Shown here piece by piece: positions 29,285-48,421 of a DNA stretch of 64,000 nucleotides. Made by a program: the position numbers and the translations under genes. The stretch comes from Bacilli bacterium. GTDB lineage: Bacteria > Bacillota_I > Bacilli_A > ML615J-28 > CAG-698. The stretch spans positions 6,648-70,647 of the forward strand of contig JBFXJT010000007.1 in NCBI GenBank assembly GCA_050174575.1, read 5' to 3'. Position 1 is the stretch's first letter. Each line of letters starts with the position of its first letter. A model generated the notes under the pieces. The model ran no database searches, was not told the DNA's origin, and saw only the letters and a list, made by a program, of their open reading frames with translations.

Positions 29285-29310
29285 AAAAAGGTCCGATTTT
29301 CGGACCTTCT
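29283..29310 (-). terminator. Terminator of the fructan operon (after the fructokinase gene)
   Basis: GGUCCGA-aaa-UCGGACC followed by UUUUUUU on the minus strand. The same hairpin follows the convergent plus-strand gene, but with a poor U-tract. Confidence 0.75.
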
Positions 29311-30254
29311 CACATTAAATTATTTATTTCATCTAAGGTAGGAAGGGCATCAATTGCCCCTTTTTTTGTTGTCACTAACGCGCCTGAAATATTACCAAAC
29401 CGTAAAATTTGTACAATTTGCTCATCAGTTAAATCATCAATATCTAATTTGTCTAAATTGACTAAAACACCAGCATAGAAAGCGTCTCCTGCACCCGTTG
29501 TATCAATTGGTTTTACAATAATTGATGGTACTTTGAGCAAGCGCCCATGGTGAAAAAAAACAGAGCCATCTTTTCCCAAAGTCAAAAAGACTATTTGGTT
29601 TTTTGTTGTGAGTTTCATCAATCCTTTTTCTAAATCTGTTTCACCAGTAAATAAAATTAATTCGTCTTGAGATATTTTTAAATAATCTGCCTTTTTTGCG
29701 TAATATGTATAAATGTTAATTGCTGTTTGCGCATCAACGAATAAATCATCGCGATAGTTAACATCAAAACTTAATGATTTATGGCTTTTTTTCACAAGTT
29801 TAATAATGTGATTTGCAAGTTCTCTTCCTTTTGGTTCGCTTAACAGTAATGAACCAAGATGAACAATATCAGCTTGTTTGATGGCTTCTAAGCTGGTTTT
29901 GGGGATATGAAAATCCGCTTGGTTTTTGTGATAAAAACTAAAGTGGCGTTCGCCATCATCGTCATTCGCAACAAATGCTAAAGTAGTATTGTGAAATGGA
30001 TCTTCCGTAATTAATGTTTTAGAAAAAGGAATTTTAGATGCAAAATCAATTAAAAATTGACCCATCAAATCAACTCCGACATTTCCAACGAACTGAACAT
30101 TTCCTCCATACTTAGCAATGCCACAAGCAACATTAAAAGGAGCTCCACCCGCAAATGTTTGATAAGACATCGTGTTATTAACTTTTTGACCTATTAAATC
30201 AACAAGGATTTCGCCAATACAGACTATCATTTGTTTCTCCTTAAGTTGTTTCAC
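29310..30254 (-). CDS. scrK: Fructokinase (PfkB/ribokinase family)
   Basis: 314 aa with the PfkB signature DTTGAGDAFYAG. Position at the end of the fructan locus, overlapping the lacI-family gene, supports the fructokinase call. Confidence 0.75.
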   Translation of the reverse strand: MKQLKEKQMIVCIGEILVDLIGQKVNNTMSYQTFAGGAPFNVACGIAKYGGNVQFVGNVGVDLMGQFLIDFASKIPFSKTLITEDPFHNTTLAFVANDDDGERHFSFYHKNQADFHIPKTSLEAIKQADIVHLGSLLLSEPKGRELANHIIKLVKKSHKSLSFDVNYRDDLFVDAQTAINIYTYYAKKADYLKISQDELILFTGETDLEKGLMKLTTKNQIVFLTLGKDGSVFFHHGRLLKVPSIIVKPIDTTGAGDAFYAGVLVNLDKLDIDDLTDEQIVQILRFGNISGALVTTKKGAIDALPTLDEINNLM

Positions 30255-31203
30255 CTAAAATTAAATTAGTTGGAACAAAAATGAATTCTTCCGATGTTTC
30301 ATGATTAATTCGTAATATCAGTTGATTAACAATGGCAACGGCAAGAGCTTCAATATCTTGTTTGACAACAGTAAATTTAGGATGTTGTAAAATCTCATCC
30401 ATGACTCCATCAAATGCAATGATTTTGATTTCTTCAGGAACTTTTTTTCCAAGTTGAGTAGCTATCTGAAAGCAAGTATTGGCAAAGGTATCACTTTGGG
30501 CAAAAATTCCGTCCAATGTTGGGTTCTCTTGCATAAATTGTTTTGCAACAACAAATTCTTCACCATGATATACATTCTTATAACAAGAAGTCGGAACCAT
30601 ATTATATTTTTGCATTACATCCAAATAAGCAAAGTAACGTTTTTGTGTTTCTGAAGGAGCAGTGGACATACCACCAATATAGCCAATGTGATGACACCCT
30701 TTTTGGACAAGATGCTCAATGGCTTTAAAAGTACTTTCATAATTATCACTTGTAACACAAGGAACGTTGTCGAGATGACGATCCAAAGTCACTATGTTTA
30801 GCCCTTTGAAATCAACATCCTGATATAAGTGATTGGTGATGAAAATAATCCCGTCGACTTGTCCTGTCTTAATCATATTCAATAAATGAACTTCTTTATC
30901 TCTTTTTCCTTGAGAACTGACAATAATCATTTTGAAACCTTTTTTATACAAGTAATCCTCAATGTAAAAAGCAATTTTACTAAAGAAAACGTGACTAATG
31001 GTTGGAACAAATAGGGCAACTAATCCAGATCTTTGTGCCTGTAGATTTCGCCCTAATTGATTAGGAATGTAATTGAGTGCTTTAATTGCATCTTCTATTT
31101 TTTTTCGCGATTCTTCAGATACATAACCGTTTTTATTAATGTATCGCGAAACAGTTCCCATGCCAACCCCAGCTCGTTTTGCAACTTCTTTCATTTGGGC
31201 CAA
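30241..31203 (-). CDS. LacI-family transcriptional regulator (probable repressor of the fructan operon)
   Basis: N-terminal HTH MAQMKEVAKRAGVGMGTVSRYIN and a C-terminal periplasmic-binding-protein-like sugar-binding domain. Confidence 0.85.
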   Translation of the reverse strand: MAQMKEVAKRAGVGMGTVSRYINKNGYVSEESRKKIEDAIKALNYIPNQLGRNLQAQRSGLVALFVPTISHVFFSKIAFYIEDYLYKKGFKMIIVSSQGKRDKEVHLLNMIKTGQVDGIIFITNHLYQDVDFKGLNIVTLDRHLDNVPCVTSDNYESTFKAIEHLVQKGCHHIGYIGGMSTAPSETQKRYFAYLDVMQKYNMVPTSCYKNVYHGEEFVVAKQFMQENPTLDGIFAQSDTFANTCFQIATQLGKKVPEEIKIIAFDGVMDEILQHPKFTVVKQDIEALAVAIVNQLILRINHETSEEFIFVPTNLILGETT

Positions 31204-31283
31204 GGTAGTCGCCTCCTAACATGTTTTCATAAACTATATTATATCACTACGTACTACTATTTTTTAACCGTTTTTCGAAATAT

Positions 31284-31344
31284 TGTAATGAAAGTAGTTC
31301 TTTCATGGATGATTAACATCATTTTGAAAGAACTACTTTATTAT
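31284..31344 (-). repeat. Long inverted repeat / RNA hairpin between the 914-aa gene and lacI
   Basis: Arms TAATGAAAGTAGTTCTTTCA (31284-31303) and TGAAAGAACTACTTTATTA (31326-31344) are about 19 of 20 complementary, with a ~20-nt loop. Each arm is itself a GAAAG...CTTTC mini-palindrome. Confidence 0.7.
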
Positions 31345-31353
31345 TAAACAACC

Positions 31354-34098
31354 TTATCCCATTTGATTAGTAATTGTTTGCCATGGAATATTGTGTGTTC
31401 GTTCGACAGTCCATTGATCGCTCGTATCTTTACTGTAAAGAGTTACGGTATCAAAGCCATTAGCAATATCTGGAGTAACTGCATAGTATGTTACAACTTC
31501 ATCAAAGAAGGCAACAGCCCAACCAGCTACTTCAATATCACAAAGTTCCAAATACAATTCCTGGCCTAAGTAAGCACTTAAATCAATAAAATATGTCCCC
31601 ATATCTGCCCATGATCCACCTAAATCTACACTTGGGAAATTGGTATCGCTAAAACGATTTTGTTTATATAAACCAATTTGTGTCCCGTCAGCTAAATAAA
31701 CTTTTACAGCTGCAGCATTAGCACCCATTTTTAAAGAAATAAAGCCTGTTCCGTGAAGAGTAAAATTGGTTGAGCGTAATGAATATTGCTCGCTTTCCGC
31801 AACACCTGAAGTCCATCCGTCAAAGTGATAATCACCGCTTTGGTTATATGGTAATTTTTCATTCCAATAATGTGTTTGACTTATAACAGCATTAACTGTA
31901 ACTTTTTCAGAAGTCCAACCAGTCATATCACCAGTTTCAAAACCTCCATTGATAATTAAACCATTATTGCCCATTTCCCATTCGATATTAACATCTGGTT
32001 CTTGGACACTGTCTTTTGTAGAACCAGCAACAGTATCAAAGCCATTTGCAACATCAGGAACAGTTGTATGATAGAAATTAATATCATCAAAGAAAGAAAC
32101 TGCCCAACCAGCTGTAGCTGGATCATCAATCAATTCAACATAAACTTTTTCGCCTAAATAAGCCGATAAGTCCGCAAAGTAACGTGTCATGGTCGCTAAA
32201 CGTCCACCATTAGCAAGGTATGGGAAATCAAAATCTTTGAAACGATAATTTGTGAAATAACCGATGACTGTTCCATCTTCTTTTACAACACGAACAGCGG
32301 CAGCTTTTCCACCCATCATGAAGGAAACCCAACCAGTACCAGATAATGTAAATAATCCAGAGCGTAAAGTATAACCAGCTGATTCCACGCTTGTTGCTGT
32401 CCAACCATCAAAATGGTAATTTCCTTGTTGGTTATAAGCAATCATTTCGCCCCAGAAAGTTTCTGCGCTTAAGGCACCATTAATTATATCGCCAAAAACA
32501 ACACTCCAACCAGTCATATCACCTGTTTCAAATCCACCGTTTGCGACATTGGTATCGGCAGAAACGACAACATTGAATGTGCTCGTAACTGTTTCGCTTT
32601 CATAAGTTGTCCCATAATGAACAACATATGTTCCTTCTTGATCAAAATCAAAAGCATCAAATCCTGTTGTAAACTCTGTTTCGCCTAAAACAACTTTTGT
32701 AATGACAGCTGGTACAGCCGTTTCGCCATAAGTTATCACGACATCAGCCATTAATGCTGTCAAGTTGTAATCATTTACCATCGCCGTTACAAAACCTTCT
32801 GCTTCAGTTTCAATCATTAAGGCAGGTAATTCAAATGGATAATCATAATTTGTATAGTATTCTTGTAAATGAGCTAGCGAATTATATGAATCGGTGTATG
32901 TTTCTGCCATAATTGCTTGGAAAGTAGATTTCATTAAAGCTTTTACTTCAACTTCCGTCATACTAACACGGAAATCATCAGCATTGATGAAAGCAAATCC
33001 GCTACTTGGATTGTTGTCCACAATCGAGATGTACAACACATCGCCAAGGTATTCGGATGCATCAACATAAACGCGACGTAATGTCAATGGTAATCCTGGA
33101 TCGTTAAATGTTGTATTAGTGACTTGGATTAATTCTGCATCTGTTGTTCCGTCATTAATAGAAATATAACAATTTGTTGGCCCAGAACCAATCATAAAGG
33201 AAATCCAACCATCACCGGCTAATGTGAATTTTGTAGAACGGATTGCTCCAACTGCTGATTCGGCAGTAGCTGCATTGTTATTTCCGTCTAAATAATAATC
33301 ACCTTCACCATAAACCATACGATCAGTCCAATAAAATTGTGATGTTGGAACGACAACTGTTCCACCAAATGCTGTACCGCTTAATTGTTTCCAACCAGTT
33401 AAATCACCTGTTTCAAACCCACCATTTGTAATCGTTGTTGATGTTGGGTCTTCTTCAAATTCTGGTTCTCCATAAGCTTCAATTTGGGCATCACGTTCTG
33501 CTTGCATAGCTGTAACTTCTGCTTCAGTCAAACAAACTACAAAATCATCTAAATTGACATAGCCATAATCATCGGTGTTATCACTGTCAGTTACTCTGAT
33601 ATAAATGATTTTATTCAAATGTGCTGATAAATCAACAACTCTTCTGATCATTTGATCAGTAATAAATGGTTCATCATAATCAGTATTCGTTATTTTTAAC
33701 AAAGCCGTGGCATTGTCTTTTTCAAAGAACTCAACAAAAATCTTATCTTGATTTTTTGCAGCTCCCATTTTAAAAGCAATTTTACCAGTTCCAGTTAATT
33801 TAAAGAAAGAAGATGTTAGTGTACCAACCATTTGTTGAGTACCACCATCCGTTCCACTGAACCAAAATTCTCCTGTTTTATCTACAGTAATTCCATTTAC
33901 TTTTAGATCATTAACGATACCGCGAGGACTAAAAGCCGTTTCTGTTTTTGTCCATCCCGTCCAAACTTCTGCTGTTCCAACTTCAAATCCACCGTTTGTA
34001 ATTTGGGTTGGATACTCTTCTTCTTTACCACATGCTGCTAACAATAATAAAGAGAGTGCTAGCATAAATACAAAGGTAAAACGCCATGTTTTTTTCAT
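31354..34098 (-). CDS. Surface lipoprotein made of four tandem CBM-like (ConA-like/CBM66-like) beta-sandwich modules; putative fructan-binding protein
   Basis: Lipobox LLLAAC. Four ~190-230-aa repeats each open with NGGFE.G...GW (ITNGGFEVGTAEVW, ITNGGFETGDLTGW, VANGGFETGDMTGW, IINGGFETGDMTGW) and end with ...Y..(V/I)(N/D)DF. The N-terminal module of the adjacent GH32 enzyme is homologous. Confidence 0.6.
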   Translation of the reverse strand: MKKTWRFTFVFMLALSLLLLAACGKEEEYPTQITNGGFEVGTAEVWTGWTKTETAFSPRGIVNDLKVNGITVDKTGEFWFSGTDGGTQQMVGTLTSSFFKLTGTGKIAFKMGAAKNQDKIFVEFFEKDNATALLKITNTDYDEPFITDQMIRRVVDLSAHLNKIIYIRVTDSDNTDDYGYVNLDDFVVCLTEAEVTAMQAERDAQIEAYGEPEFEEDPTSTTITNGGFETGDLTGWKQLSGTAFGGTVVVPTSQFYWTDRMVYGEGDYYLDGNNNAATAESAVGAIRSTKFTLAGDGWISFMIGSGPTNCYISINDGTTDAELIQVTNTTFNDPGLPLTLRRVYVDASEYLGDVLYISIVDNNPSSGFAFINADDFRVSMTEVEVKALMKSTFQAIMAETYTDSYNSLAHLQEYYTNYDYPFELPALMIETEAEGFVTAMVNDYNLTALMADVVITYGETAVPAVITKVVLGETEFTTGFDAFDFDQEGTYVVHYGTTYESETVTSTFNVVVSADTNVANGGFETGDMTGWSVVFGDIINGALSAETFWGEMIAYNQQGNYHFDGWTATSVESAGYTLRSGLFTLSGTGWVSFMMGGKAAAVRVVKEDGTVIGYFTNYRFKDFDFPYLANGGRLATMTRYFADLSAYLGEKVYVELIDDPATAGWAVSFFDDINFYHTTVPDVANGFDTVAGSTKDSVQEPDVNIEWEMGNNGLIINGGFETGDMTGWTSEKVTVNAVISQTHYWNEKLPYNQSGDYHFDGWTSGVAESEQYSLRSTNFTLHGTGFISLKMGANAAAVKVYLADGTQIGLYKQNRFSDTNFPSVDLGGSWADMGTYFIDLSAYLGQELYLELCDIEVAGWAVAFFDEVVTYYAVTPDIANGFDTVTLYSKDTSDQWTVERTHNIPWQTITNQMG

Positions 34099-34115: not shown

Positions 34116-36164
34116 CTATTTTACAATAATGTCATATTTGCTTATTTGCTTTAATATAGAACTTCCCCCAACAGTGAAAAATTCAATACCAGTGTCATTT
34201 AAGCCTGGGTAAACATTTCCAGTCATCGTAATATAACCATCATTAATAAAGACTTCAACACTGGAAACGTCTAAAAAGATTCGTAATTTTAAAATCCCAT
34301 TATTTAAGGAAACGTCAGCACTCCTAGTTTGACGGTTGATTTCCGCACCACTGATTGTTTCACCTGAATTTCCTCGATCAAAGATAACTGTTTGTGAAAG
34401 AGCATCATAATAAACTAATGTTTCGTTTTCTGTTCCTTTAAACAGTTTCACCCCAACTTTAGATGCAGATCCAACTTCAATTTCAAGTTCCAGTTCAACC
34501 GTCTTACCAGAAATTTGTGGGAGGACTAAGTTTCCATTAATCGTTTTATTTTGATAACTGACTTCATTTTGACGATAATTTTCGATTTCTCTAACTGGGG
34601 CTTGATAAATATGGCCATCTTTATAGGTCAATTCTCTTGGCAAGGTATAAGCACCAACCCAGTTATGCGCTTGTGTGACTAAAGTACGATCCCACATTTG
34701 CATCCATGCTAGCATAATTGTTCGTCCATCAGGCGTTATCATCGTTTGAGCAGCATAGAAATCAAATCCACCGTCAAATTCTTGAAATTCATCATAATTG
34801 AATTTCCCCGTTTGATAATCAATTCCACCAACCATATAAACTACCGAGTGAATATTTTCAAATTTCGTCTTGTCTCTTGGTAAATTTTGTGGACTAACAA
34901 TTAAAATCTCTTGATTATTTAACTCAATAAAATCTGGGCATTCATAAACACCATTTAACTGTAAGAAATTTGGTGCTTGAGGATTGTTATTGTTCATGAC
35001 TTTGCCAACATAATCCCAACTAGTTAAATTGCTCGAACGATAAAGGACAACCATGCCATAGCCATTTGCTTTCGTACCGATCAAACAATAATAATATCCA
35101 TCATGATAAAACACTTTTGGATCACGAAAATCAGCTGTTGATACACCGATTGGTACCTCAATTGTAGAAATAACTGGATTACGGGTTAATTTTTCAAAAT
35201 TAATCCCATCTTCGGACACTGCTAGATTTTGTGTTTGTTGATTATTGGCTACGCCAGTATACATGAGGTATAATTTCCCATCTTTTTCAATAGCCGTCCC
35301 ACTAAAGCACCCAAAATCTTGATCATATTTTTGATCGGGAGCTAAAGCTACAGGCTGTAATTCCCACTTAACAAAATCCTTCGTTGTTTGATGCCCCCAA
35401 TGCATTGGGCCCCAACTGCTGGCATAAGGGTTAAATTGGTGAAACAAATGACCTTCACCATTAAACCAAATTAATCCGTTGGGATCATTACTCCATCCTA
35501 TTGGAGATGCAGCATGATAAGTATGACGGTAAGTTGGGTTTACAGTATTAAGATTTTCAAGAACATATTGATATGCATCGTGTACTTTTCCCACTTGATC
35601 TTCAACTCCTTGATAATTAACGATAAAATCGTCAACATTGATGTAATTATAGTTATCGGTATTATTATCATTATCAATAATTTTTATTTGAACTGTTTTT
35701 CCAATATGACTACTTCCATCCAATATGACCCGATGGAGAGTATTTGGACTGCTTTCATCAAAATTTAAATTAGCGCGTGTTGCTAATTCATTCCCTCTTG
35801 AGTCAATTAAAGAAACATAACATAAGTCGACATTTGCTCCACCGCTAATCAAAAATCCGATTTTTCCATTCCCTTTTAATTGAAATTTTTCACTTAACAT
35901 AAAACCGGTTTTACTTAAGCCTGCTTTTTTACCATAAAAGAGAAATTCTCCCGTTTGGTTAAAGCGATTGCCATTTTCATCTTTGTCATTAAGAACAACA
36001 CCAGCATCAGTAAAAGCATCACCGTCTTCTTCCCAGTTTTTTAAGGTACCACTTTCAAAACTAGCGTTTAAAAAGGAATATTCGCCATCCACAGTTTGAT
36101 TACATCCTCCTAATATCATGATGAAAGAAAGAAGGATAGCAATCAAAAGCCATTTATTCTTCAT
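34116..36164 (-). CDS. GH32 beta-fructofuranosidase/levanase lipoprotein with N-terminal CBM-like module (canonical active site)
   Basis: Lipobox ILGGC. GH32 motifs WSNDPNGL (nucleophile), FSGTAI, RDPKVF and YECPDF are all present. Confidence 0.85.
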   Translation of the reverse strand: MKNKWLLIAILLSFIMILGGCNQTVDGEYSFLNASFESGTLKNWEEDGDAFTDAGVVLNDKDENGNRFNQTGEFLFYGKKAGLSKTGFMLSEKFQLKGNGKIGFLISGGANVDLCYVSLIDSRGNELATRANLNFDESSPNTLHRVILDGSSHIGKTVQIKIIDNDNNTDNYNYINVDDFIVNYQGVEDQVGKVHDAYQYVLENLNTVNPTYRHTYHAASPIGWSNDPNGLIWFNGEGHLFHQFNPYASSWGPMHWGHQTTKDFVKWELQPVALAPDQKYDQDFGCFSGTAIEKDGKLYLMYTGVANNQQTQNLAVSEDGINFEKLTRNPVISTIEVPIGVSTADFRDPKVFYHDGYYYCLIGTKANGYGMVVLYRSSNLTSWDYVGKVMNNNNPQAPNFLQLNGVYECPDFIELNNQEILIVSPQNLPRDKTKFENIHSVVYMVGGIDYQTGKFNYDEFQEFDGGFDFYAAQTMITPDGRTIMLAWMQMWDRTLVTQAHNWVGAYTLPRELTYKDGHIYQAPVREIENYRQNEVSYQNKTINGNLVLPQISGKTVELELEIEVGSASKVGVKLFKGTENETLVYYDALSQTVIFDRGNSGETISGAEINRQTRSADVSLNNGILKLRIFLDVSSVEVFINDGYITMTGNVYPGLNDTGIEFFTVGGSSILKQISKYDIIVK

Positions 36165-38544
36165 CCAGTGTTACCTCTTCATAAATTGATTTCATTGTTT
36201 TGACAGTCATTTGGTTTATGTTGACTTCACCATTTTCTGAAAACAAGAGTAACCCTAAAGATGAAGGATCGGGATAAATACGGGCAGAAATAGCTTTTTC
36301 ATTGTTGAAAAAAGCTTCAATTAAAGAACGGTCGAGGTAAATATCCATGACTAAAATATTATTATCTAAAACAAATGAGCCATAGAAATTTCCTGAAATG
36401 TTTTGGTTATCGCTTAATGCACCACTTAAACCTGTTTTTACTCCTAAGGTTTTTAATGTCTCATTAAAATAAAGCGTTGTTTCTTCTAACGTAGTGGCGT
36501 TCTTGCGAACTTTTATTCCAAACAAAGTAGCATTAATGTTTTCAAATTCTACGTGAATATAAAGCATGTCACCCTTTACATCAGTTAATAGGGTGTTGGC
36601 TTCACTGATGGACTTATTGCTCATTGTGACTAATGTCTCTTGGTAATAGTCTTCTAGTGCGGATACTGGGCGAATCATTAAATCCGTTCCGTCACTGTTT
36701 AAATAAACTTCTCTAGCCAGTCCAACACAGTTTGCCCACCCAGATAAATAGACATCCGATGGTTTCCTTTGATCCTGCATGATACTGAAAAGATAAGTTT
36801 TTTGGGAAACTGGATCAATAAAACCTGAAGGGCCAGTAAAAACATTATTACCATAATCAAGTAGTCTTGGAGTCGTCCCAAAAGCAGGATCGGGAATAAA
36901 ACGACCAGCAGTTTTATCGAAAGTACCAAGCCAATAATAAATATCATTATCGGCACTGTCAGCAGGAGCAGGACTAATAATCAACATATATTTTGTAATT
37001 GTTTTACTTTCGTTTGTTACGGGAAGCATAATCGGAAGTTCCCAAACAGGCCCTAAATCGGCAGGTTGATTGACTTGTTCGTACAATTGCCCTTTGTAGG
37101 TCCAATTATTAAACGAGTCATCCTTTGTTGTATAAAGTAAAGCTGTCCCACCAGTATTGATTTTGGTACTTGATGATCCAATTAGTAAAAACCAAGTATC
37201 TTCTTCTTGCCAAACATGGGCATCACGAAATTGTCCCGATGCTCCTTGACCAGCTACTTGTTTAATAGCTAATTCATCATCGATTACCCATTCTGTTAAG
37301 TAGGGATCGGTTGGATCTTTGGGCCTAGCAATACCAATGTTTTGATTGCTTATCAAACCATCTTTTTGATAAGAGTCATTTCCAGCAGTAAATAGTAAGA
37401 CGGGAATGCCTTCATTATCATAAGTTACACCACCGCTCCATACACCATCCGGACAAACGGAATCAGCTGTTGGGGTGATAACTTCTTTTAATGGACGCCA
37501 ATTAACCATATCATCACTGATTAAATGCCCCCATCCAATATTGCGAAAATAAGGGCCAAACATATTGAATTGGAAAAATAAGTGATAATACCCATTGTAA
37601 TACATTGGAGCATGAGGTTCATTCATCCAGTGTTGATAAGGACCACCATGATATTGTGTTTTATAAAAATCATCTGTCAGAATATTTTGTAACCAAATAT
37701 CCTCAAAAGCAATTTCCGGAACTGTCTTACTTTCGTAAACTTGCTTTACATCATTTGCTTGTAAACTGGCTTCATAGACTTTTAACTCATCAATCAATCC
37801 ACTTACCATATTTAAAGTTGCCGTAGCATTCGAACCTGGATAACTATTACGAGCAATGAGGAAGGGTTCGCCCGACGCTCCCATAATGGTTGCCCCTTCG
37901 AAAAAATAATCAATGTTGACTAATTCGCCATTTAAATATATGGCCATTTCGCCTTGATCACCATCGAAGGTTGCCACAATATGATTCCATTCATATTTTT
38001 TAAGGGGATTACCTTCATCCCATAAAGTTAACCATCGGTCACCAAGACCTACTTGAAAGCTCCAAGAACCATGGCGTTGATAGCCAAGAATAAATCCTTG
38101 GTTTTCACTTTTATTGTGTTGAGAAACAATCGCTGTTAATTTATCAGTTCCATTGTCTTTGGCATTGGGATCGTCCCACTCAAAGGCCCTTGGAGCAATC
38201 CAAACACTAATTGATAATTTTGAACCGCGAATTTTTAAATCTTCTTCTTGATAACGGATAAAATTAGAATATCCATCAAACAATAAGGAGCCATTATTGA
38301 TCCCTGTTGCGCGCCACTGTGGATCCTCAGGATTTTCCATAAAGCTAGGGTTTGTGAAAACATAAGCAACAGTCGCTGGAGCTTCGTTTTTCGAAGCATC
38401 ATTCACTTTGTTGCCCTGACCTTCATCAAAAGTTAAATGTAACAATAAATCTTTTGTATAAGGGTCGCTCTTTCCACATGCATATAAACTTGAAACAATG
38501 AATAATAGGAAAAAAATAGTCAATAGTTTTTTTGTTATCATCAT
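36154..38544 (-). CDS. GH32-like lipoprotein with N-terminal LamG-like domain; variant active-site motifs
   Basis: Lipobox LYAC; N-terminal ConA/LamG-like domain. The GH32 block reads WMNEPHAPMYYNGYYHLFFQFN...WGHLISDDMVNW, but the canonical NDPNG is NEPHA, RDP is RDA (FRDAHVW), and EC is EL (WELPIM). Confidence 0.75.
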   Translation of the reverse strand: MMITKKLLTIFFLLFIVSSLYACGKSDPYTKDLLLHLTFDEGQGNKVNDASKNEAPATVAYVFTNPSFMENPEDPQWRATGINNGSLLFDGYSNFIRYQEEDLKIRGSKLSISVWIAPRAFEWDDPNAKDNGTDKLTAIVSQHNKSENQGFILGYQRHGSWSFQVGLGDRWLTLWDEGNPLKKYEWNHIVATFDGDQGEMAIYLNGELVNIDYFFEGATIMGASGEPFLIARNSYPGSNATATLNMVSGLIDELKVYEASLQANDVKQVYESKTVPEIAFEDIWLQNILTDDFYKTQYHGGPYQHWMNEPHAPMYYNGYYHLFFQFNMFGPYFRNIGWGHLISDDMVNWRPLKEVITPTADSVCPDGVWSGGVTYDNEGIPVLLFTAGNDSYQKDGLISNQNIGIARPKDPTDPYLTEWVIDDELAIKQVAGQGASGQFRDAHVWQEEDTWFLLIGSSSTKINTGGTALLYTTKDDSFNNWTYKGQLYEQVNQPADLGPVWELPIMLPVTNESKTITKYMLIISPAPADSADNDIYYWLGTFDKTAGRFIPDPAFGTTPRLLDYGNNVFTGPSGFIDPVSQKTYLFSIMQDQRKPSDVYLSGWANCVGLAREVYLNSDGTDLMIRPVSALEDYYQETLVTMSNKSISEANTLLTDVKGDMLYIHVEFENINATLFGIKVRKNATTLEETTLYFNETLKTLGVKTGLSGALSDNQNISGNFYGSFVLDNNILVMDIYLDRSLIEAFFNNEKAISARIYPDPSSLGLLLFSENGEVNINQMTVKTMKSIYEEVTLDEE

Positions 38545-38555
38545 CTTTTTCCCTC

Positions 38556-40904
38556 CTAGATTGTTTTCATTTTAATTACTTGCAAAACATCAACCATAAT
38601 TTGACCATCAGCAAATAACGACATTTCCGATGCATTGTTATAAACCATCGCCGTCAATGTTTGATACCCATTGATGTATATTTCAATCATTGCTCCATCA
38701 ATAAATATTTCTAAATCTAATACTTCCCCAGGAAGAAGAGAAATTCCTCCCCCAAAGATTCCTTTCACAACACTATTTCCAGAATTAGTTGTATCAATTG
38801 AAATAAATTGATCGATTGCGTTATAATTTAGGACTGTCTTTCTCCCTAGTTGATCTTCTTTTAAAGTAAGTCCAAAATTTTGAGAATTTTCATTAGTTAA
38901 TTGAACATGCAAGTATAACTGATTGCCGACCACTGATGCTAAAGCTTGGTTTGCAAATTCAATATTAGTATCTTTTTTATCAACAATGACATCAGTTTTT
39001 AAATTATTTAATTCGTTTAAAGGGGTAATTTTTAAACTGCCGGCATCATCAAGTGACAATTGACGAGGAATACCAGCAGTATGGGCCCATCCTGCATCAT
39101 AATCTTGATGACCATTTCGTTGGCCTTGAATAATGCTACAAATTAAAACACGTCCTGTTAGGGGATCCGTCGAAACCGTTGGCCCCGTAAACACATTGTT
39201 CCCAAAATCCATTAATTTTGGATCTTCATGTTCAGGAATAAAAGTCATCGTTGTTTTATCGAAGTCCCCCAAATAATAGTAAATATCATTATCCGCACCA
39301 GAACCCGCGGGAGAAAACGCAAATATATACTTAGAAACTGTTTTATTAGCGTTCGTTATTTTCGCAAGATTTACTAATTCCCATGTCGTACCCATATAAT
39401 TATGATAAACAGAAGGCATGAACAGTTCGCCTTGATAATCCCAATTCAAAAAAGAATCGTCTTGAGTTGTAAATACTTGGGCAGTTCCTTTATTATCATA
39501 ACGAGCAGATCCGACAAACATGTAGTAAGTTCCATCTTCAAAATAAATATTTGGATCACGAAATTCGTTTGTTTTGGCCATTGATGGTGTTGAGACGGCT
39601 ACTAATTGATCGCTTACATCCCACTCCGTTAAATCAGGATCGCTTAAATCTTTCGGTATTGCAATGGCGATATTTTGATTGCTCCATTGCCCAAAGCTTT
39701 TGGCATCATCACCGGCTGTAAAAAATAATACGGGTGTTCCATCAGCTTTGTATGACGCTCCTCCCGACCAAATACCATCAGGACAAACAGAATTTTTCAT
39801 AAGAATAATGGCTTCTTTCACATTGCGCCAATTGACCATATCAGGACTTACCCAATGACCCCATGCAATTTGCCGCCAGTATGGCCCAGTAAGATTAAAT
39901 TGATAAAACAAATGGTAATTTCCATTGAAATAAAACAAAGCATGTGGTTCATTCATCCAATGTTGAGGTGGTGAAGCATGATATTGAGGTTTGTATATAT
40001 CATCATCTAGCAATTCGTCATTAAGCCAAGCATCTTTAAAATCAATGGCTTTCATGCGGTTTTTTTGTACAAAACTGTTGTGATAGGCTATTATATCCTC
40101 TTCTTTAATTGATGCTTGGTAAATTTTAAGTTCGTCCATTAAACCATTGAACATATTAATTTCATAAAGGCCTGTTTTTTGGGGAACCTGGCTTTTTCCG
40201 ATATACAAAGATGTATTCGCAGCAATAATCTCGCCAAATACATCATTGTGAAAATTAATTATTTCCCCGTTTTTGTATATCCCCATAAATCCGTTTGTTC
40301 CATCAAAAACAAAGGTAAGATGATTCCAAGTATAACGGTCAAGATCATTCCACTCATTCCAAAGTTTAACCCAGCGATCGCCAAGTCCTATTTGAAAGGA
40401 ATATTCACCATATTTATGCATGCCGATAACAAAACCTTGATTTTCTGACATGATGTATTGCCCTAAAACAACTTGCAAATGCTCCGTTCCGTTAACAACT
40501 GCTCCTGGAACATCCCATTCAAACATCCTTGGGCTAATGAATAAATCAATAGTTAAGTTAGGACCGCTAATTTGAATATCCTGATAATCATATTTTATAT
40601 AATTCGAATAACCATCAAAGGCTAAACATGCACCACTAATTGCTGAATTTGTAATCCAAGTTGGATCAATCGATTGCTTGTATTCAGCATCCGTGAAGAC
40701 ATATTCAATCGTGGCTTTTGTCATTGTTGTTTGTTCAGTAAGTTCGTTACCTTCATTTTCATCAAAAGAAGTTGCAAATATTAATTTATCTTGATAAGGG
40801 TCATGATAATCGTGATAATAAATTGCATCCTCCTCTGTTTTTGCACAACCAATAAAGGCCATCATTAAACAAAAAACTGTGATAATTAATAAACCTTTTT
40901 TCAA
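38556..40904 (-). CDS. GH32-like lipoprotein with N-terminal LamG-like domain; paralog with NEPHA motif
   Basis: Lipobox FIGC. WMNEPHALFYFNGNYHLFYQFN...WGHWVSPDMVNW; RDP retained (EFRDPNIYF); EC replaced by EL (WELVNL). Confidence 0.75.
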   Translation of the reverse strand: MKKGLLIITVFCLMMAFIGCAKTEEDAIYYHDYHDPYQDKLIFATSFDENEGNELTEQTTMTKATIEYVFTDAEYKQSIDPTWITNSAISGACLAFDGYSNYIKYDYQDIQISGPNLTIDLFISPRMFEWDVPGAVVNGTEHLQVVLGQYIMSENQGFVIGMHKYGEYSFQIGLGDRWVKLWNEWNDLDRYTWNHLTFVFDGTNGFMGIYKNGEIINFHNDVFGEIIAANTSLYIGKSQVPQKTGLYEINMFNGLMDELKIYQASIKEEDIIAYHNSFVQKNRMKAIDFKDAWLNDELLDDDIYKPQYHASPPQHWMNEPHALFYFNGNYHLFYQFNLTGPYWRQIAWGHWVSPDMVNWRNVKEAIILMKNSVCPDGIWSGGASYKADGTPVLFFTAGDDAKSFGQWSNQNIAIAIPKDLSDPDLTEWDVSDQLVAVSTPSMAKTNEFRDPNIYFEDGTYYMFVGSARYDNKGTAQVFTTQDDSFLNWDYQGELFMPSVYHNYMGTTWELVNLAKITNANKTVSKYIFAFSPAGSGADNDIYYYLGDFDKTTMTFIPEHEDPKLMDFGNNVFTGPTVSTDPLTGRVLICSIIQGQRNGHQDYDAGWAHTAGIPRQLSLDDAGSLKITPLNELNNLKTDVIVDKKDTNIEFANQALASVVGNQLYLHVQLTNENSQNFGLTLKEDQLGRKTVLNYNAIDQFISIDTTNSGNSVVKGIFGGGISLLPGEVLDLEIFIDGAMIEIYINGYQTLTAMVYNNASEMSLFADGQIMVDVLQVIKMKTI

Positions 40905-40916
40905 ATTACCACTTCC

Positions 40917-41843
40917 TTACTTCAATCCAGTAAAAGCGACACCTTCAATAATATATCTTTGAGCAAAAATATAAACTAAGGCGATCGGAATCGTACTAAA
41001 TGTTAAGGATGCCATAACTAAAGAAATATCTTTCGGATTAAAATTATTAATCAACTGTAAAAATACTTGCAAAGGTTGTTGCACTGGATTAGAGAACATT
41101 AATTGTGCAAACACATATTCGTTCCAACTTCCCATAAATGTAAAAATAGCGACTGTTGCAAATACTGGCAATGATAGAGGAACAATAACCTTAAAGAAGG
41201 TTGTTAATTTACTAGCACCATCAACATAAGCTGCTTCTTCTAATTCTTTAGGAATTCCCAAGAAAAAAGCCCGAAACATGAAGATATAAAAGGGACTAAC
41301 AATACCTGGTAATAAATAACCAATGACTCTCAATTCTGCTGTCAATAATCCCAAATTTTTTAAAATAACATACAAAGGAACAATAGAAGTCTCAACAGGA
41401 ACAATTAATATTAAAATAATGATACTAACGATGGTTTTATGACCAGGAAAAACAAAACGAGACAACGCATAACCGGCAAGTGAGTTAACTAATAAAACAC
41501 CTGTAATCGAAATTGTTGCATAAATGACACTGTTAAGAATGGATCTTCCAAAATTATCAAAAGTTGCAAATAAATTTTGATAAGATAAAAACCATTTGCT
41601 GATATTCCAAGTAGCTGGTAAAAAGGTTTTTATGGAATTGATGGAGGCATACACTTCTGCTTGAGTTTTAAAACTATTCGAAAGCATCCATACTACAGGA
41701 AATAAAAAGATAATGCATAGCACGATTAAAAAAATTCTAAATAATGTTTTCGCAATTATTTCACGAACTGAGTAATGTCTTTTTTGTTTTTTAGGCAATT
41801 GTAGTATTGATAATGGAATGTTTTTTCGCTTCTTTTTCATCAT
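40917..41843 (-). CDS. Carbohydrate ABC transporter permease (MalG-like)
   Basis: EAA loop EAAYVDGASKLTTFFKVIVPLSLP and six TM segments. Start placed at the internal MMKKKRK, since the long-ORF start overlaps the upstream permease by 23 nt. Confidence 0.8.
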   Translation of the reverse strand: MMKKKRKNIPLSILQLPKKQKRHYSVREIIAKTLFRIFLIVLCIIFLFPVVWMLSNSFKTQAEVYASINSIKTFLPATWNISKWFLSYQNLFATFDNFGRSILNSVIYATISITGVLLVNSLAGYALSRFVFPGHKTIVSIIILILIVPVETSIVPLYVILKNLGLLTAELRVIGYLLPGIVSPFYIFMFRAFFLGIPKELEEAAYVDGASKLTTFFKVIVPLSLPVFATVAIFTFMGSWNEYVFAQLMFSNPVQQPLQVFLQLINNFNPKDISLVMASLTFSTIPIALVYIFAQRYIIEGVAFTGLK

Positions 41844-41850
41844 TATCACC

Positions 41851-42783
41851 TCAAATTGTGTTATCTTTCTCAAAGACTTTTCTTAAGGTTAAAGCAATCG
41901 TAGCCATAAAGATGGTATAAATTAAAGCGATGGCACTTGAATAACCAACATCCCGGAAATTAATACCTTGCAAATAAATATAATAAGACATCGTTAAGGT
42001 CCGGTCAATCGGACCTCCTCTTGTCATAATCATTGGTTGGGTAATCAACCTAAATGCCCCAATCATCATTGTAATCAGCACAAATGAGAATGTAGGCTTG
42101 ATGCTAGGAAGGGTAATCCGCCAGAATTGTTGGAATTTATTCGCTCCATCGATGCTTGATGCTTCATACAGCTCTTTTGGAATATTTTTTAGTGCTGACA
42201 AGAAAATTAACATTTGGTAACCTGCTCCCTGCCAAGCAGAAATCATGACAATTAAATCCATGGCTTGTTCGGGATCGCTTAAGAAAAGTTGTCTCGATAA
42301 ACCAATAGTTTCAAGGAGGGCATTTATCAATCCATCTTGCTCATTCAATAAGTTAATCCATAACATCGATGTGACCGCCAATGACAACATTGTTGGCACA
42401 AAGAATGCCCATCTAAAAAAGGTATTTCCCTTCATTGGCTTATTTAAAATCAAGGCTAACAAAAGAGCTGCACCAAGTTGTAACGGAATAACTTTTAAAA
42501 CAAATTCCATTGTGTTTTTAAATGCTTGAAGAAGAATTTTATCTTGAAAGGCATTTTTAAAGTTTGCAAAACCAATAAAAGTTGTATTATTTAACTCTAA
42601 TAAATTGGCATCTGTAAACGAATAGGCTAGAGAAATAACAATGGGCATAATGACAAATATAATTCCTAAAATAACAGCAGGAAGCAAAAAACTCCAACCT
42701 ATAATCGTATCAGAAGTTCGGTATGTTTTCCCAAATAATTTAAAATACATTCGGGTATTTGGTTTTTTTACAGATCCTACCAT
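41851..42783 (-). CDS. Carbohydrate ABC transporter permease (MalF-like)
   Basis: EAA loop EASSIDGANKFQQFWRITLP and six TM segments. Confidence 0.8.
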   Translation of the reverse strand: MVGSVKKPNTRMYFKLFGKTYRTSDTIIGWSFLLPAVILGIIFVIMPIVISLAYSFTDANLLELNNTTFIGFANFKNAFQDKILLQAFKNTMEFVLKVIPLQLGAALLLALILNKPMKGNTFFRWAFFVPTMLSLAVTSMLWINLLNEQDGLINALLETIGLSRQLFLSDPEQAMDLIVMISAWQGAGYQMLIFLSALKNIPKELYEASSIDGANKFQQFWRITLPSIKPTFSFVLITMMIGAFRLITQPMIMTRGGPIDRTLTMSYYIYLQGINFRDVGYSSAIALIYTIFMATIALTLRKVFEKDNTI

Positions 42784-42793
42784 TTTTCACCTC

Positions 42794-44134
42794 TTAATTG
42801 TCAATTTGAACGACTTGAGTGTCAATGTAATCTTCTAAATTGTATTCTGTTGTTCCATTCATTGTTTCGATGTATTCAATAATTTTACTGTAGCTACTAC
42901 TTACTTTAGGATAGTTGATCATTTTTGGTCGGGGAGTAGCAATTTCTTGTAAAATAGTTGCTAATGAACCTAAAGCTCCCGTTTGGAATCCTGTTAAATC
43001 ATTCAAAAGTGATTTATGGGTTGGAAATGTTCCAATTGATTCATACATTAATTGGCTTCCAGTAACTCCTGTTATATAAGCAACAGCAATCGCTGCTGAA
43101 GCAGGATCGGATGAATTAACCGTTACTCCAAATCCCCATGAACCACAACCAGCAACCGGCGTTCCTTTTGTAGTTTCGTCTTCATAAACAGGCATCGGCA
43201 TAATTCCATAACTTGGAATAAAAGTATTATAATTTTTCTTAATCGTCGAAATATTCCATGGTCCGTGAATTTCAAAAGCGCATTCTCCACCTGCTAAAGC
43301 ATCTGTATTGCTGCCATTGTAAACCCAAGGTTCGCCATCATCATCGGGGTTGAAGAACATTTCTAACATTTTAATTCCTTTAATAGAATTAGAAGAGTTA
43401 AGGGCACCATCAACGACTTCATTGGCGCCAAAGAAACTCCCACCTGAAGAATATATTAATGATGAATATAAATACATGACACCTTCATCGCCACCAAATC
43501 CTAAGTTCAATTTAATTCGATATTCAAGGTTGGCAGCTTTTAGGGCAACCATTGCTTCCATAACATCAAGCCAAGACCAAGGATTAGTAACTGTCCCAAA
43601 ATCTTCTTCATCATAACCAACTTGCTTTAATAAATCCTTATTAAAATACATTCCAGTTGGCGCATCCATACCGGATAAAGCATATAATTTTCCATCAATC
43701 GTACTTTGTTCGATGACGCTGTCAACATAACTCGAAGTAATATCAGTTGTTAAATATTGATCAATCGGTGCTAAAATGCCCGCATCAGCATAAGCAGCTA
43801 TATTAGGGGCATCAACAGCAACAATGTCAGGAAGTCCTCCTGATAGAATTTCCGCGTTGATTGCTGTTTGTAAAGTATCAGAACTGTTTTTAAATTCTAA
43901 TTTCATTTTTAAAATTCTTGTTCCATCAGCAGTTTTTAATTGTTGTTCATTAAACAATTCAGCAATTGTGGAATAAACAATCCCTTCATCTTCTGCTTCG
44001 GATTTATGAACCCAAACCTTAATTACTTTTACCTCGTCCGTATCTTCATCTTCTGCTGGACCACAACCAACAAACACCAAGAAACTAAGCAAAAGTACCA
44101 TAACACTTAAAAAAAGTTTTCCAAAATTTTTCAT
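42794..44134 (-). CDS. Extracellular solute-binding lipoprotein (family 1, CUT1 sugar ABC)
   Basis: Lipobox FVGCGP; 446 aa SBP_bac_1-like. It is the first gene of the fructan operon. Confidence 0.8.
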   Translation of the reverse strand: MKNFGKLFLSVMVLLLSFLVFVGCGPAEDEDTDEVKVIKVWVHKSEAEDEGIVYSTIAELFNEQQLKTADGTRILKMKLEFKNSSDTLQTAINAEILSGGLPDIVAVDAPNIAAYADAGILAPIDQYLTTDITSSYVDSVIEQSTIDGKLYALSGMDAPTGMYFNKDLLKQVGYDEEDFGTVTNPWSWLDVMEAMVALKAANLEYRIKLNLGFGGDEGVMYLYSSLIYSSGGSFFGANEVVDGALNSSNSIKGIKMLEMFFNPDDDGEPWVYNGSNTDALAGGECAFEIHGPWNISTIKKNYNTFIPSYGIMPMPVYEDETTKGTPVAGCGSWGFGVTVNSSDPASAAIAVAYITGVTGSQLMYESIGTFPTHKSLLNDLTGFQTGALGSLATILQEIATPRPKMINYPKVSSSYSKIIEYIETMNGTTEYNLEDYIDTQVVQIDN

Positions 44135-44223
44135 TTTCGTTCATCCTTTCTTATTATTGTTGAAAATGTGAAAATAGTTTGTTTTATAAAGTGAAAAAGA
44201 GATCTAGAAAATACAAATTTAAG

Positions 44224-44237
44224 TGGAATCGTTTCCA
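44224..44237 (-). promoter_or_regulatory. LacI-type operator O2 (TGGAAtCGtTTCCA)
   Basis: 14-bp near-palindrome matching the LacI-family/cre consensus TGnAAnCGnTTnCA, ~50 nt downstream of the predicted TSS of the SBP gene. Confidence 0.65.
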
Positions 44238-44279
44238 TGTTTTGCTAAAAAAAAGAAAAAATCTTATTTTTTTAAAATG

Positions 44280-44293
44280 TGGAAACGATTCCT
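44280..44293 (-). promoter_or_regulatory. LacI-type operator O1 (AGGAATCGTTTCCA on the minus strand)
   Basis: Second copy, 13 of 14 identical to O2, immediately downstream of the -10 element and overlapping the TSS. The two operators are 56 bp centre to centre. Confidence 0.65.
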
Positions 44294-44305
44294 CTAGTTG
44301 CTTTT

Positions 44306-44334
44306 ATTTTAAACCACCCCGTTTTTTTTGTCAA
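44306..44334 (-). promoter_or_regulatory. Sigma70 promoter of the fructan operon
   Basis: Minus strand TTGACA (44329-44334), a 17-nt spacer, then TAAAAT (44306-44311). Confidence 0.6.
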
Positions 44335-44361
44335 GCGTTTTCTTTTATTATTTTTTAAAAA

Positions 44362-44391
44362 TAAAAAATACTATGGCGTTTCCCATAGTAT
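44362..44391 (-). terminator. Terminator after tRNA-Ser(CGA)
   Basis: AUACUAUGG-gaaacg-CCAUAGUAU followed by UUUUU on the minus strand. Confidence 0.7.
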
Positions 44392-44436
44392 CTAAAAACT
44401 GATTGTTATTCTCTTCTTATTTTCTTAATAATTTAA

Positions 44437-44527
44437 TGGCGGAGGAGAAGGGATTTGAACCCTTGCACCGTTTTACCGATCTGCTCGCTTTCGAGACGAG
44501 TCCCTTCAGCCGCTTGGGTACTCCTCC
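44437..44527 (-). tRNA. tRNA-Ser (anticodon CGA)
   Basis: 91 nt: GGAGGAG-TA-CCCAAGCGGCTGAAGGG-A-CTCGT-CTCGAAA-GCGAG-(19-nt variable arm)-AAGGG-TTCAAAT-CCCTT-CTCCTCC-GCCA. The long variable arm is characteristic of Ser. Confidence 0.85.
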
Positions 44528-44533
44528 AAATTT

Positions 44534-46188: not shown

Positions 46189-47268
46189 TTATAAATGTTT
46201 TTCTTTAGGGATAAAATTGCTTCGAATCTTACCAATCAAGGCGATTCTTTCTTCAGCAAATTTATTAGCAGCCAGTTGCGTATTAATCTTATGCTTCTTC
46301 GAATAATCAAAAATGATTAATAAGCGATCATATATTTGTTTAATTACTTTCAAAGTACGTTCACGATTATAAGGAGGTGTAAATTCTTGGTAAACATTGA
46401 CTACGCCACCAGCATTGATCACGTAATCAGGAGCATACAAAATACCTCGATCCATTAACATATCACCGTGTTTCTTTTCATCTAGTAAAACATTATTAGC
46501 AGCACCAGCAATTATTTCACAATTCAATGTTGGGATTGTATCATCATTTAAAATTGCTCCAACAGAATTTGGTGAGAAAATATCACATTTTACGGCATAA
46601 ATATCTTCACATTTTACAGCTGTAGCCCCAAAATCTTTAACTGCTCGTTCAACACGGTCTTTCTTGATATCGGTAACAATCAGTTTTGCACCTTCTTGGT
46701 ACAAGTATTCACAAAGAGTATAGCCAACGGCTCCTAATCCTTGGACTGCTACAACTTTTTCTAGTAAACTATCATTTCCCCATTTTTCTTTTGCACAAGC
46801 TTTAATTCCCCAATAAACTCCATAGGCTGTTACAGGTGATGGATTACCCGACATGTCAGCACGTCCGTTGACATAGTTTGTTTCCATCATTAGATAATCA
46901 ACATCATATTCGTTAATATTCATATCTTCGCCGGTGAAAAAGCGTCCGCCTAAAGATTGAACATAACGACCGTAAGCTCGCAAATAAGCCTCCGTCTTTA
47001 CTTTTTGTGGATCACCAATCAAGACTGTTTTTCCACCACCGCAATTTACACCGGATGCAGAGCACTTATAAGTCATTCCTCTTGAAAGACGAACAACATC
47101 AAATAATGCATCATCTTCGCTCTCGTATTTAAAAAGACGAGTTCCCCCAATGGCTGGGCCTAAAACGGTGTCGTGGATAGCAGTGATTCCTTTTAATCCT
47201 GTTGCTTTGTCATAAAAATAGATAATTTGTTCGTGTCCATACTTTTCCATGTAATCAAAAACTTTCAT
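46189..47268 (-). CDS. Leucine dehydrogenase (Glu/Leu/Phe/Val dehydrogenase family)
   Basis: 359 aa. Near-collinear with B. subtilis Bcd (MKVFDYMEKYGHEQ...GGTRLF...GGGKTVLIGDP); family signature GGGK present. Confidence 0.85.
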   Translation of the reverse strand: MKVFDYMEKYGHEQIIYFYDKATGLKGITAIHDTVLGPAIGGTRLFKYESEDDALFDVVRLSRGMTYKCSASGVNCGGGKTVLIGDPQKVKTEAYLRAYGRYVQSLGGRFFTGEDMNINEYDVDYLMMETNYVNGRADMSGNPSPVTAYGVYWGIKACAKEKWGNDSLLEKVVAVQGLGAVGYTLCEYLYQEGAKLIVTDIKKDRVERAVKDFGATAVKCEDIYAVKCDIFSPNSVGAILNDDTIPTLNCEIIAGAANNVLLDEKKHGDMLMDRGILYAPDYVINAGGVVNVYQEFTPPYNRERTLKVIKQIYDRLLIIFDYSKKHKINTQLAANKFAEERIALIGKIRSNFIPKEKHL

Positions 47269-47284: not shown

Positions 47285-48358
47285 TTAATAAGTTTTCGGT
47301 TGTTCTTCTTTGTTTAAGACTCGTAAGGCTCCTAATGCAAGTGATAACATTTCGTTTTCACCGGGATATACGAGTACTTCTCCAAGAAACTTAATTCTTT
47401 CGATTAAGTGCGTGACTAGATATGGTTCATATGCTAGTCCTCCAGTTAATACAATAAAGTCAAAATTGCCTTTGAAAACAGTCGCACATGCTCCTATTTC
47501 TTTCGCAATTTGATAAATCATGGCATCATAAATAAGCTTTGCATACTCATCATGCTGCTCAATCCGTTTTACAACCTCTTTTGCATCATTCGTTCCTAAA
47601 TAAGCTACTAACCCTCCTTTTCCATAATTCATTCGTTTGATGTCTTCAAGAGAATATTTACCAGAAAAACATAAATTATATAAAGGGCCTAAAGGAACAG
47701 TTCCGCTTCGCTCAGGAGACATTGGACCATCCCCATCTAAGGCGTCATTCACATCAATGACTCGACCTTTTTGGTGAGCAGCAACACTAATTCCTCCACC
47801 CAAATGGACAATAATCATATTCAAGTCTTCATATGATCTTCCCTTATCTTTAGCTACTTGCCGACCAATTGCTTTATGATTTAAAGCGTGAAAAATGCAT
47901 TGGCGTTCAATTATTGGCATCCCAGATATCCGAGCAATGGGAGCCATTTCATCGACAGCAACAGGATCAACGATAAAAGCCGGGATCTTGTACTGTTCGC
48001 CAATTTCAAAAGCAATTAAAGCTCCTAAGTTGGAGGCGTGTTCACCACGTCTTGCTTCTTTTAAAAAAGTTATCATTGCTTCGTTGACCAAATATGTTCC
48101 GCTTTCAAGCGGTGCAAGCATCCCTCCACGGCCACAAACGGCCGTTAATGTTTTTAAATCAAATCCATGAACTTCTAAGTTATCAAGAATTACTTTTTTC
48201 CGAAATTGGAATTGGGAAGCAACATTTGGAAAAGACTGGATGACATCGGTCGGATGACTTATCTTTACTTCAAGAATACTTTGGTCGTTTTTAAATACAG
48301 CGATTTTTGTTGATGTTGAACCAGGATTAATTATGAGAATAAAATTCTCCAAGGACAT
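47285..48358 (-). CDS. buk: Butyrate (branched-chain acyl) kinase
   Basis: 357 aa. N-terminus ILIINPGSTSTKIAVF in the acetate/butyrate kinase family. Confidence 0.85.
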   Translation of the reverse strand: MSLENFILIINPGSTSTKIAVFKNDQSILEVKISHPTDVIQSFPNVASQFQFRKKVILDNLEVHGFDLKTLTAVCGRGGMLAPLESGTYLVNEAMITFLKEARRGEHASNLGALIAFEIGEQYKIPAFIVDPVAVDEMAPIARISGMPIIERQCIFHALNHKAIGRQVAKDKGRSYEDLNMIIVHLGGGISVAAHQKGRVIDVNDALDGDGPMSPERSGTVPLGPLYNLCFSGKYSLEDIKRMNYGKGGLVAYLGTNDAKEVVKRIEQHDEYAKLIYDAMIYQIAKEIGACATVFKGNFDFIVLTGGLAYEPYLVTHLIERIKFLGEVLVYPGENEMLSLALGALRVLNKEEQPKTY

Positions 48359-48392
48359 CCCTCCTTTTTAGATTATAATAAAAGAAACCGCT

Positions 48393-48421
48393 TCCATAGA
48401 TATTATACTTGAAGAATGCGA
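48393..48421 (-). promoter_or_regulatory. Sigma70 promoter of buk
   Basis: Minus strand TTGAGA (48416-48421), a 17-nt spacer, then TATAAT (48393-48398). RBS AAAGGAGGG. Confidence 0.6.

Follow-up and report, generated by a model that had tools for sequence, protein, structure and literature searches.

The window, by which we mean the whole 64-kb stretch of DNA analysed, carries on its minus strand a fructan operon, a gene for a LacI-family regulator and a fructokinase gene (Table 1). The operon promoter, TTGACA-17-TAAAAT, matches the consensus at 11 of 12 positions in the promoter scan. JGI gives homologues of the first gene product the name 'fructooligosaccharide transport system substrate-binding protein'; an exact look-up of the window's own binding protein gave no match. 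A gene for a MalK-type ATPase, which could have supplied a third operator, is absent from the fructan operon and from the 64-kb window as a whole. The 914-aa lipoprotein (31354-34098) consists of internally repeated modules, which recur, with about 30% identity, in the N-terminal part of the third GH32 enzyme (35619-36164). Its sole family match is a weak hit to the NTTRR-F1 domain, and it possibly serves in surface fructan binding.

Table 1. Regulatory elements and genes of the fructan locus, in the order of transcription. Positions refer to the window.
Feature	Position	Strand	Basis or remark
Terminator of the upstream tRNA-Ser(cga) gene	44393..44366	-	Upstream limit of the regulatory region
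-35 hexamer, TTGACA	44334-44329	-	Promoter scan; conserved in L087; TTGACA-type at orthologous loci
-10 hexamer, TAAAAT	44311-44306	-	Promoter scan; 17-nt spacer from the -35 hexamer
O1, promoter-proximal predicted operator, AGGAATCGTTTCCA	44293..44280	-	Starts 12 nt after the -10 hexamer
O2, distal predicted operator, TGGAAACGATTCCA	44237..44224	-	56 bp downstream of O1
Ribosome-binding site of the binding-protein gene, GAAAGGA	44142..44149	-	Read from the sequence; conserved in L087
ABC solute-binding lipoprotein, fructo-oligosaccharide type, first operon gene	42794..44134	-	Pfam SBP_bac_1/8
Two ABC permease genes	40917..42783	-	Pfam BPD_transp_1
Three GH32 fructan hydrolase genes	34116..40904	-	Pfam Glyco_hydro_32N/C
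914-aa lipoprotein gene	31354..34098	-	Conserved in essentially all orthologous loci
lacI promoter-like site, TTAAAA-18-TATAAT with TG extension (TGaTATAAT)	31267..31238	-	Without a nearby operator
LacI-family regulator, 317 aa from ATG, candidate repressor	31194..30241	-	Pfam LacI and Peripla_BP
PfkB-family fructokinase gene	29310..30254	-	Overlaps the end of lacI

Two 14-bp sequences are found between this promoter and the first gene, TGGAATCGTTTCCA at 44224-44237 and TGGAAACGATTCCT at 44280-44293 (both given on the + strand), exactly where the first-pass annotation had placed a pair of LacI-type sites. A direct sequence check confirmed both. We refer to the promoter-proximal site as O1 and to the distal one as O2. 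Their centres are 56 bp apart and lie 152 nt (O1) and 96 nt (O2) before the ATG of the binding-protein gene. Relative to the predicted transcription start, O1 covers roughly +7 to +20 and O2 about +63 to +76. Hence, O1 does follow the -10 hexamer, as had been noted, but its position is slightly past the likely start site, which it does not overlap.

Both sites are of the form TGGAA-WCGW-TTCCA, an even-length palindrome with a central CG, in which six of seven pairs (O2) or five of seven (O1) are self-complementary. Even palindromes with a central CG are one mark by which LacI/GalR-family operators are recognised (PMC4052901), and O1 and O2 have it; a second mark, a position within the promoter or leader of the operon under control, is likewise found here. 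As in the LacI/GalR repressor systems surveyed in that study, the palindromes lie between promoter and start codon, and a regulator is encoded in the regulated locus. We also observe that O1 and O2 are inverted copies of one another, the asymmetric centre included.

The pair is rare. When at most one mismatch to TGGAAWCGWTTCCA is allowed, O1 and O2 are the sole matches in 64 kb, and none of 100 shuffles gave two matches at this threshold. With two mismatches allowed, the signal merges with the background of the 64-kb window, and matches to the loose pattern TGNAANCGNTTNCA are likewise at background level there. Short palindromes are common in an AT-rich sequence such as this one (34% GC), and a chance similarity without function could be invoked. 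However, two sites occur within 70 bp where 0.04 matches are expected in the whole window, and the motif is conserved over many loci, which effectively refutes this reading; we give it practically no probability.

The conservation was established on 60 genome loci retrieved via the regulator, and on 25 metagenome loci and four contigs retrieved via the binding protein. The second route was used because most of the lacI-centred loci missed the operon promoter, the operon being about 13 kb long. Perfect 5-N4-5 palindromes of every kind were counted without bias in 16 non-redundant stretches that precede the binding-protein gene. TGGAA-N4-TTCCA was present in eight of these, while the next-best palindrome was present in two of the 16 and the maximum reached in 500 shuffles was three. 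In addition, about 1.2 Mb of related loci were scanned for sites with perfect TGGAA-N4-TTCCA arms, or with one arm mismatch and a central CG. This gave 48 sites, nearly all of them intergenic and positioned 13-215 bp upstream of genes for the binding protein, GH32 enzymes, 914-aa-like proteins, LacI or MalK-type ATPases (Pfam); two of the 48 fall within coding sequence (L038:19921 and L025:10989). The palindrome count and the locus scan are the independent tests of the motif. The site matrix was built from arm-selected sites, and the arm conservation that it displays is partly circular.

TGGAA-N4-TTCCA recurs at orthologous loci of distant uncultured Bacilli and Clostridia, and with a common layout: a TTGACA-16/17-TAxxxT promoter comes first, then a site whose start is 7-17 nt past the -10 hexamer, and in most cases another site downstream of that one. 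At least 11 loci show this layout; they come from MAGs of Bacilli, Clostridia, Christensenellaceae and Erysipelotrichaceae. The operon order is also widely conserved among the loci, with a LacI orthologue at 37-91% identity. Overall, in the sequence scanned, the motif is conserved before, and specific to, orthologous operons with an orthologous regulator.

In the closest relative, L087, the regulator and the binding protein each share 91% identity with those of the window, and the upstream neighbour is another gene. There, O1 is exact and lies inside a 26-nt block of complete identity. O2 also persists, at an unchanged distance of 56 bp from O1; both W positions at its centre are flipped, the same change that inversion of the site would produce. 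The spacer and the flanks, in contrast, have diverged around the conserved sites. At the level of sequence, this comparison is a clear phylogenetic footprint. Between the ribosome-binding site and O2, a further block, AAACAAACTATTTTCACATTTT (44163-44184), is almost unchanged in L087, although the sequence around it has diverged. The contig of this relative (L002/L087, CAZYFI010000002.1) was deposited as 'uncultured Bacteroidales bacterium', though the locus is Firmicutes-type; the label is probably a taxonomic mislabel or the result of a binning error.

Variant palindromes, TGGGAACCTTCCCA, TGTGGTATCGATACCACA, TGGTAACGGTCCCC and GGGAACGTTCCC, occupy the same position in the distant loci L088:1925-1985, L062:130-150, L079 and L082. 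In the regulator of the L088 genome, VSKTTVSR replaces GVGxGTVSR in the recognition helix. These observations, with one example of each only, hint at co-variation of regulator and operator.

The regulator of the locus is the only LacI-family protein encoded in the 64-kb window, and its gene lies in the same locus as the sites, another mark of LacI/GalR-family operators; it has a LacI helix-turn-helix and a Peripla_BP domain. Its 317-aa sequence is identical to that of an annotated protein from a 'Bacilli bacterium' MAG. The exact look-up matched this ATG-start version and returned nothing for a version starting at TTG, and the ATG start is therefore preferred. Orthologues of the regulator at 41-60% identity all come from uncultured organisms. 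Its best structural relatives are 3ctp, CcpA and PurR, proteins of 330-340 aa, of which CcpA and PurR are dimers. Scored against the CcpA model, the regulator reaches 144 bits for a cutoff of 442; it is not CcpA. The hinge region, YIPNQLGRNL, contains a leucine typical of LacI-family members that read a central CG.

The first-pass annotation had put this regulator at the far end of the operon. It is indeed at the far end of the locus, but lacI and pfkB appear to form a transcription unit of their own. Between the 914-aa gene and lacI (region 31238-31335), a hairpin with a 15-bp stem is followed by the extended -10 promoter of lacI. A search for an autoregulatory operator before lacI in the window found none, only the TGnTATAAT promoter. 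With a promoter of its own, no operator and a hairpin in front, the regulator is therefore probably made constitutively, and not as the tail of the operon. In seven relatives (L014, L016, L020, L031, L033, L034 and L048), a motif-like site is located just upstream of lacI, and the lack of one in the window counts against the local repressor as the protein that binds O1 and O2.

The same palindrome and layout, recurring at orthologous loci that encode orthologous regulators, nevertheless bear out the earlier proposal that the local LacI-family protein is the obvious candidate to bind the pair. We consider it likely, with good confidence, that O1 and O2 are operators of the repressor encoded in the same locus (30241-31194).

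Tandem sites as such are not exceptional, being present in about 20% of LacI-family-regulated operons (PMC4052901, Ravcheev et al. 2014). How two sites might act together is a separate question. The first-pass annotation had seen in the pair the 'classic' arrangement for looping, in which a repressor tetramer binds both operators at once and loops out the intervening 56 bp. Two good operators at one promoter, and a 56-bp spacing retained in the 91% relative, speak for such a mechanism, and the orthologue spacings of 31-33 bp fit a reported 32-bp peak that is ascribed to cooperative binding of two dimers (PMC4052901). However, the regulator lacks an equivalent of the C-terminal four-helix segment that serves tetramerisation in LacI: its residues 3-314 of 317 align to residues 8-326 of the 360 of E. 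coli LacI, the protein ends at the equivalent of LacI residue ~329, and nothing matches the segment at about 340-357. In addition, the spacings at orthologous promoters (31, 33, 33, 55, 56, 56, 77, 79 and 100 bp) share no common helical phase, with offsets from about 50 to 340 degrees. Those of 55-56 and 77-100 bp lie outside the reported peaks of 13, 22 and 32 bp (PMC4052901), and the window's own spacing is thus off the cooperative-dimer peak. The distance of 56 bp had been correctly given, but at 10.5 bp per turn it amounts to 5.33 turns and not to about five, so that the two sites differ in phase by about 120 degrees. Finally, some promoters of this regulon have one site only (L022, L026, L025:2850, L045 and L071). 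The locus does resemble the E. coli lac system, with its O1, O2 and O3, in that several operators for a single LacI-family protein surround one promoter. The lac repressor, however, tetramerises by means of a C-terminal helix, which the regulator described here lacks, and, unlike in lac looping, the spacing is neither conserved nor in phase. With no tetramerisation segment and with spacings that are variable and out of phase, looping by a tetramer is improbable.

From the sites, their rarity, their promoter context and their conservation, and from the family of the regulator, all of which are shown here, we infer how the repressor might bind and act, what might induce the operon and what O2 might contribute. 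Promoter occlusion at O1, with O2 in an auxiliary or roadblock role, is likelier than looping. Without inducer, a repressor dimer would occupy O1, inside the footprint of RNA polymerase, and would block polymerase binding or promoter escape at a strong sigma-70-type promoter. A second dimer on O2 would be auxiliary, acting as a transcription roadblock and/or raising the local occupancy by the repressor. A fructan-derived sugar, such as fructose, sucrose or short fructo-oligosaccharides, would then release the repressor.

The sites themselves might serve another protein. The first-pass annotation had named cre sites bound by CcpA as an alternative. Together with HPr-Ser-P, CcpA would impose glucose repression on the operon in place of fructan-specific control, acting instead of, or beside, the local repressor. 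The pattern TGNAANCGNTTNCA is common to cre and LacI-family operators, and the recognition helix of the regulator (GMGTVSR) resembles that of CcpA (SMATVSR). O2 is one mismatch away from two published cre forms (PMC2329647), and confirmed cre sites may be 1-2 nt off consensus (PMC5986886). In Lactobacillus plantarum, FOS clusters are under both CcpA and local LacI-type repressors (PMC5986886, PMC7419226). In the window, a similar sequence, TGGAAGCGGTTTCT, lies 5 nt after a TATAAT hexamer, before a non-sugar operon. On the other hand, neither O1 nor O2 is an exact match to any of five published forms (Table 1 of PMC2329647). The 1-4 mismatches always include G3 and C12, which the experiment-based Firmicutes form excludes and which hardly vary among the orthologous sites, a set that was, however, arm-selected. 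Moreover, the motif is confined to fructan-locus promoters in the window and in about 1.2 Mb of related loci. In L020, the sites TGGAATTATTTCCA and TGGAATCAATTCCA keep the arms while the central CG, the most conserved part of cre, is replaced. Lastly, L088 and L090 carry in the promoter a separate cre-like element of the AAGCGCTT type beside the TGGAA-type site, which suggests that the two are distinct motifs. Thus, the caveat about CcpA still stands but is disfavoured by the mismatches and by the confinement of the motif to fructan promoters, and we assign a low probability to O1 and O2 being cre sites. The local repressor could nevertheless have company, in that CcpA could make additional use of O1 and O2.

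Several cre-like sequences were noted. The palindrome TGGAAGCGGTTTCT (48383-48396, minus strand), of cre-like/LacI type, follows a promoter TTGAGA-17-TATAAT and precedes a butyrate/acetate-kinase-family gene (48358..47285), after which comes a Leu/Val/Phe dehydrogenase gene (47268..46189). This palindrome is an exact match to the Firmicutes cre form WGNAASCGNWWNCA, and its TGGAA half-site is also that of O1 and O2. It may be a true CcpA site, or else a third, weak site of the fructan regulator. Canonical cre-like elements, AAAGCGCTTACA, TGAAAGCGCTTTGA and TGACAACGCTTACA, are found in or beside the fructan promoters of L088:1935-1950, L090:1905-1925 and L071:2099, where they adjoin the TGGAA-type site; none of this kind is evident in the window's promoter. 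The flanks of the related loci held too few non-fructan LacI-type sites to define a local cre form.

O1 and O2 are also mutually complementary over 13 bp and could act in the RNA, pairing in the leader transcript as a long 5' hairpin through which the mRNA would be stabilised or expression attenuated. The 176-nt leader does fold with an O1-O2 stem (-32 kcal/mol, z = -3.97), none of 200 shuffles being as stable, and weak hits to hairpin-type (miRNA precursor) families were obtained in Rfam. However, two copies of any palindrome necessarily complement each other. Among the deviations from the motif over 11 loci, eight break the pair and five still pair, some through G-U wobble only, and double-sided compensatory changes number zero. 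In L087, the central flip of O2 cuts the pairing to 11 of 14 (hand count), and the single-site promoters are unable to form an O1-O2 hairpin at all. A search of Rfam with region 43900-44700 found no riboswitch or leader family, and nothing at gathering score except the neighbouring tRNA. Despite the strong fold, the hairpin was rejected as the explanation of the pair on the lack of covariation and the reduced pairing in L087; we regard it as very improbable. It is best treated as a by-product, which could have an effect on mRNA stability.

A combination of DNA- and RNA-level effects may also be envisaged. The repressor, although devoid of the tail, would couple out-of-phase operators 55-56 bp apart through a hitherto unrecognised dimer-dimer contact or an accessory DNA-bending protein, and the 13-bp complementarity would in addition give the mRNA a protective 5' hairpin. 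The GalR-HU repressosome is a precedent for operator coupling by an accessory DNA-bending protein. If this were true, one sequence pair would work at both the DNA and the RNA level; we hold the combination to be quite improbable.

The predicted system, a local repressor on O1 and O2, has counterparts among known sugar operons. In the msm FOS operon of Lactobacillus acidophilus, the LacI-family regulator MsmR reportedly stands beside an operon for an ABC transporter and a GH32 fructosidase, and cre-like palindromes are said to occur in the promoter-operator region. Unlike the locus described here, the msm operon reportedly has the regulator first, includes the ATPase and contains a single GH32 gene. 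The SacR1/SacR2 system of L. plantarum is similar in that local LacI-family repressors control fructan/FOS genes through promoter palindromes centred on AACG..TT (PMC7419226, PMC5986886); one of its promoters has two sites, and CcpA and cre are layered over the same promoters. In contrast to the fructan locus analysed here, the L. plantarum clusters use PTS uptake and their operators have other arms (for example AATGTCAAACGATTGACATA). Binding was proven there by EMSA and ChIP, whereas it is predicted here. Loci Eub-3 and Eub-4 of Eubacterium rectale, a gut Firmicute, likewise combine GH32, ABC transporter and LacI genes (PMC5320581). They are smaller, with one GH32 each, and are presented without defined operators in the part of that source considered here.

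The first-pass annotation had suggested that the motif could seed a regulon search, and in relatives it is indeed present before extra GH32 genes, MalK-type ATPase genes and lacI. MalK/MsmK-type ATPase genes have the motif upstream in four of them (L041:362, L044:5082/5224, L045:5484 and L081:3463/3522). A transporter that lacks an ATPase gene, together with the motif before the MalK genes of relatives, predicts a third target elsewhere in the genome. The ATPase is thus probably a distant member of the regulon.

The four exact 14-mers, the motif TGGAAACGTTTCCA and the orthologous group of regulators were sought in the searchable literature, and no paper on them was found. The kind of system is a textbook one, and the understanding of LacI-family regulation is unchanged by it. 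What the analysis provides, for a LacI-family group that is uncharacterised, is a defined operator motif, TGGAAACGTTTCCA, together with a predicted regulon. This regulon would comprise a fructan ABC transporter, several GH32 enzymes and a large lipoprotein, joined in relatives by a MalK-type ATPase and by lacI. The motif may aid in annotating fructan loci and in predicting which genomes would respond to inulin or FOS, and the promoter region is a possible source of a fructan-inducible promoter-operator cassette. In uncultured Bacilli and Clostridia of gut type, the regulator group is predicted to control large loci for fructan utilisation.
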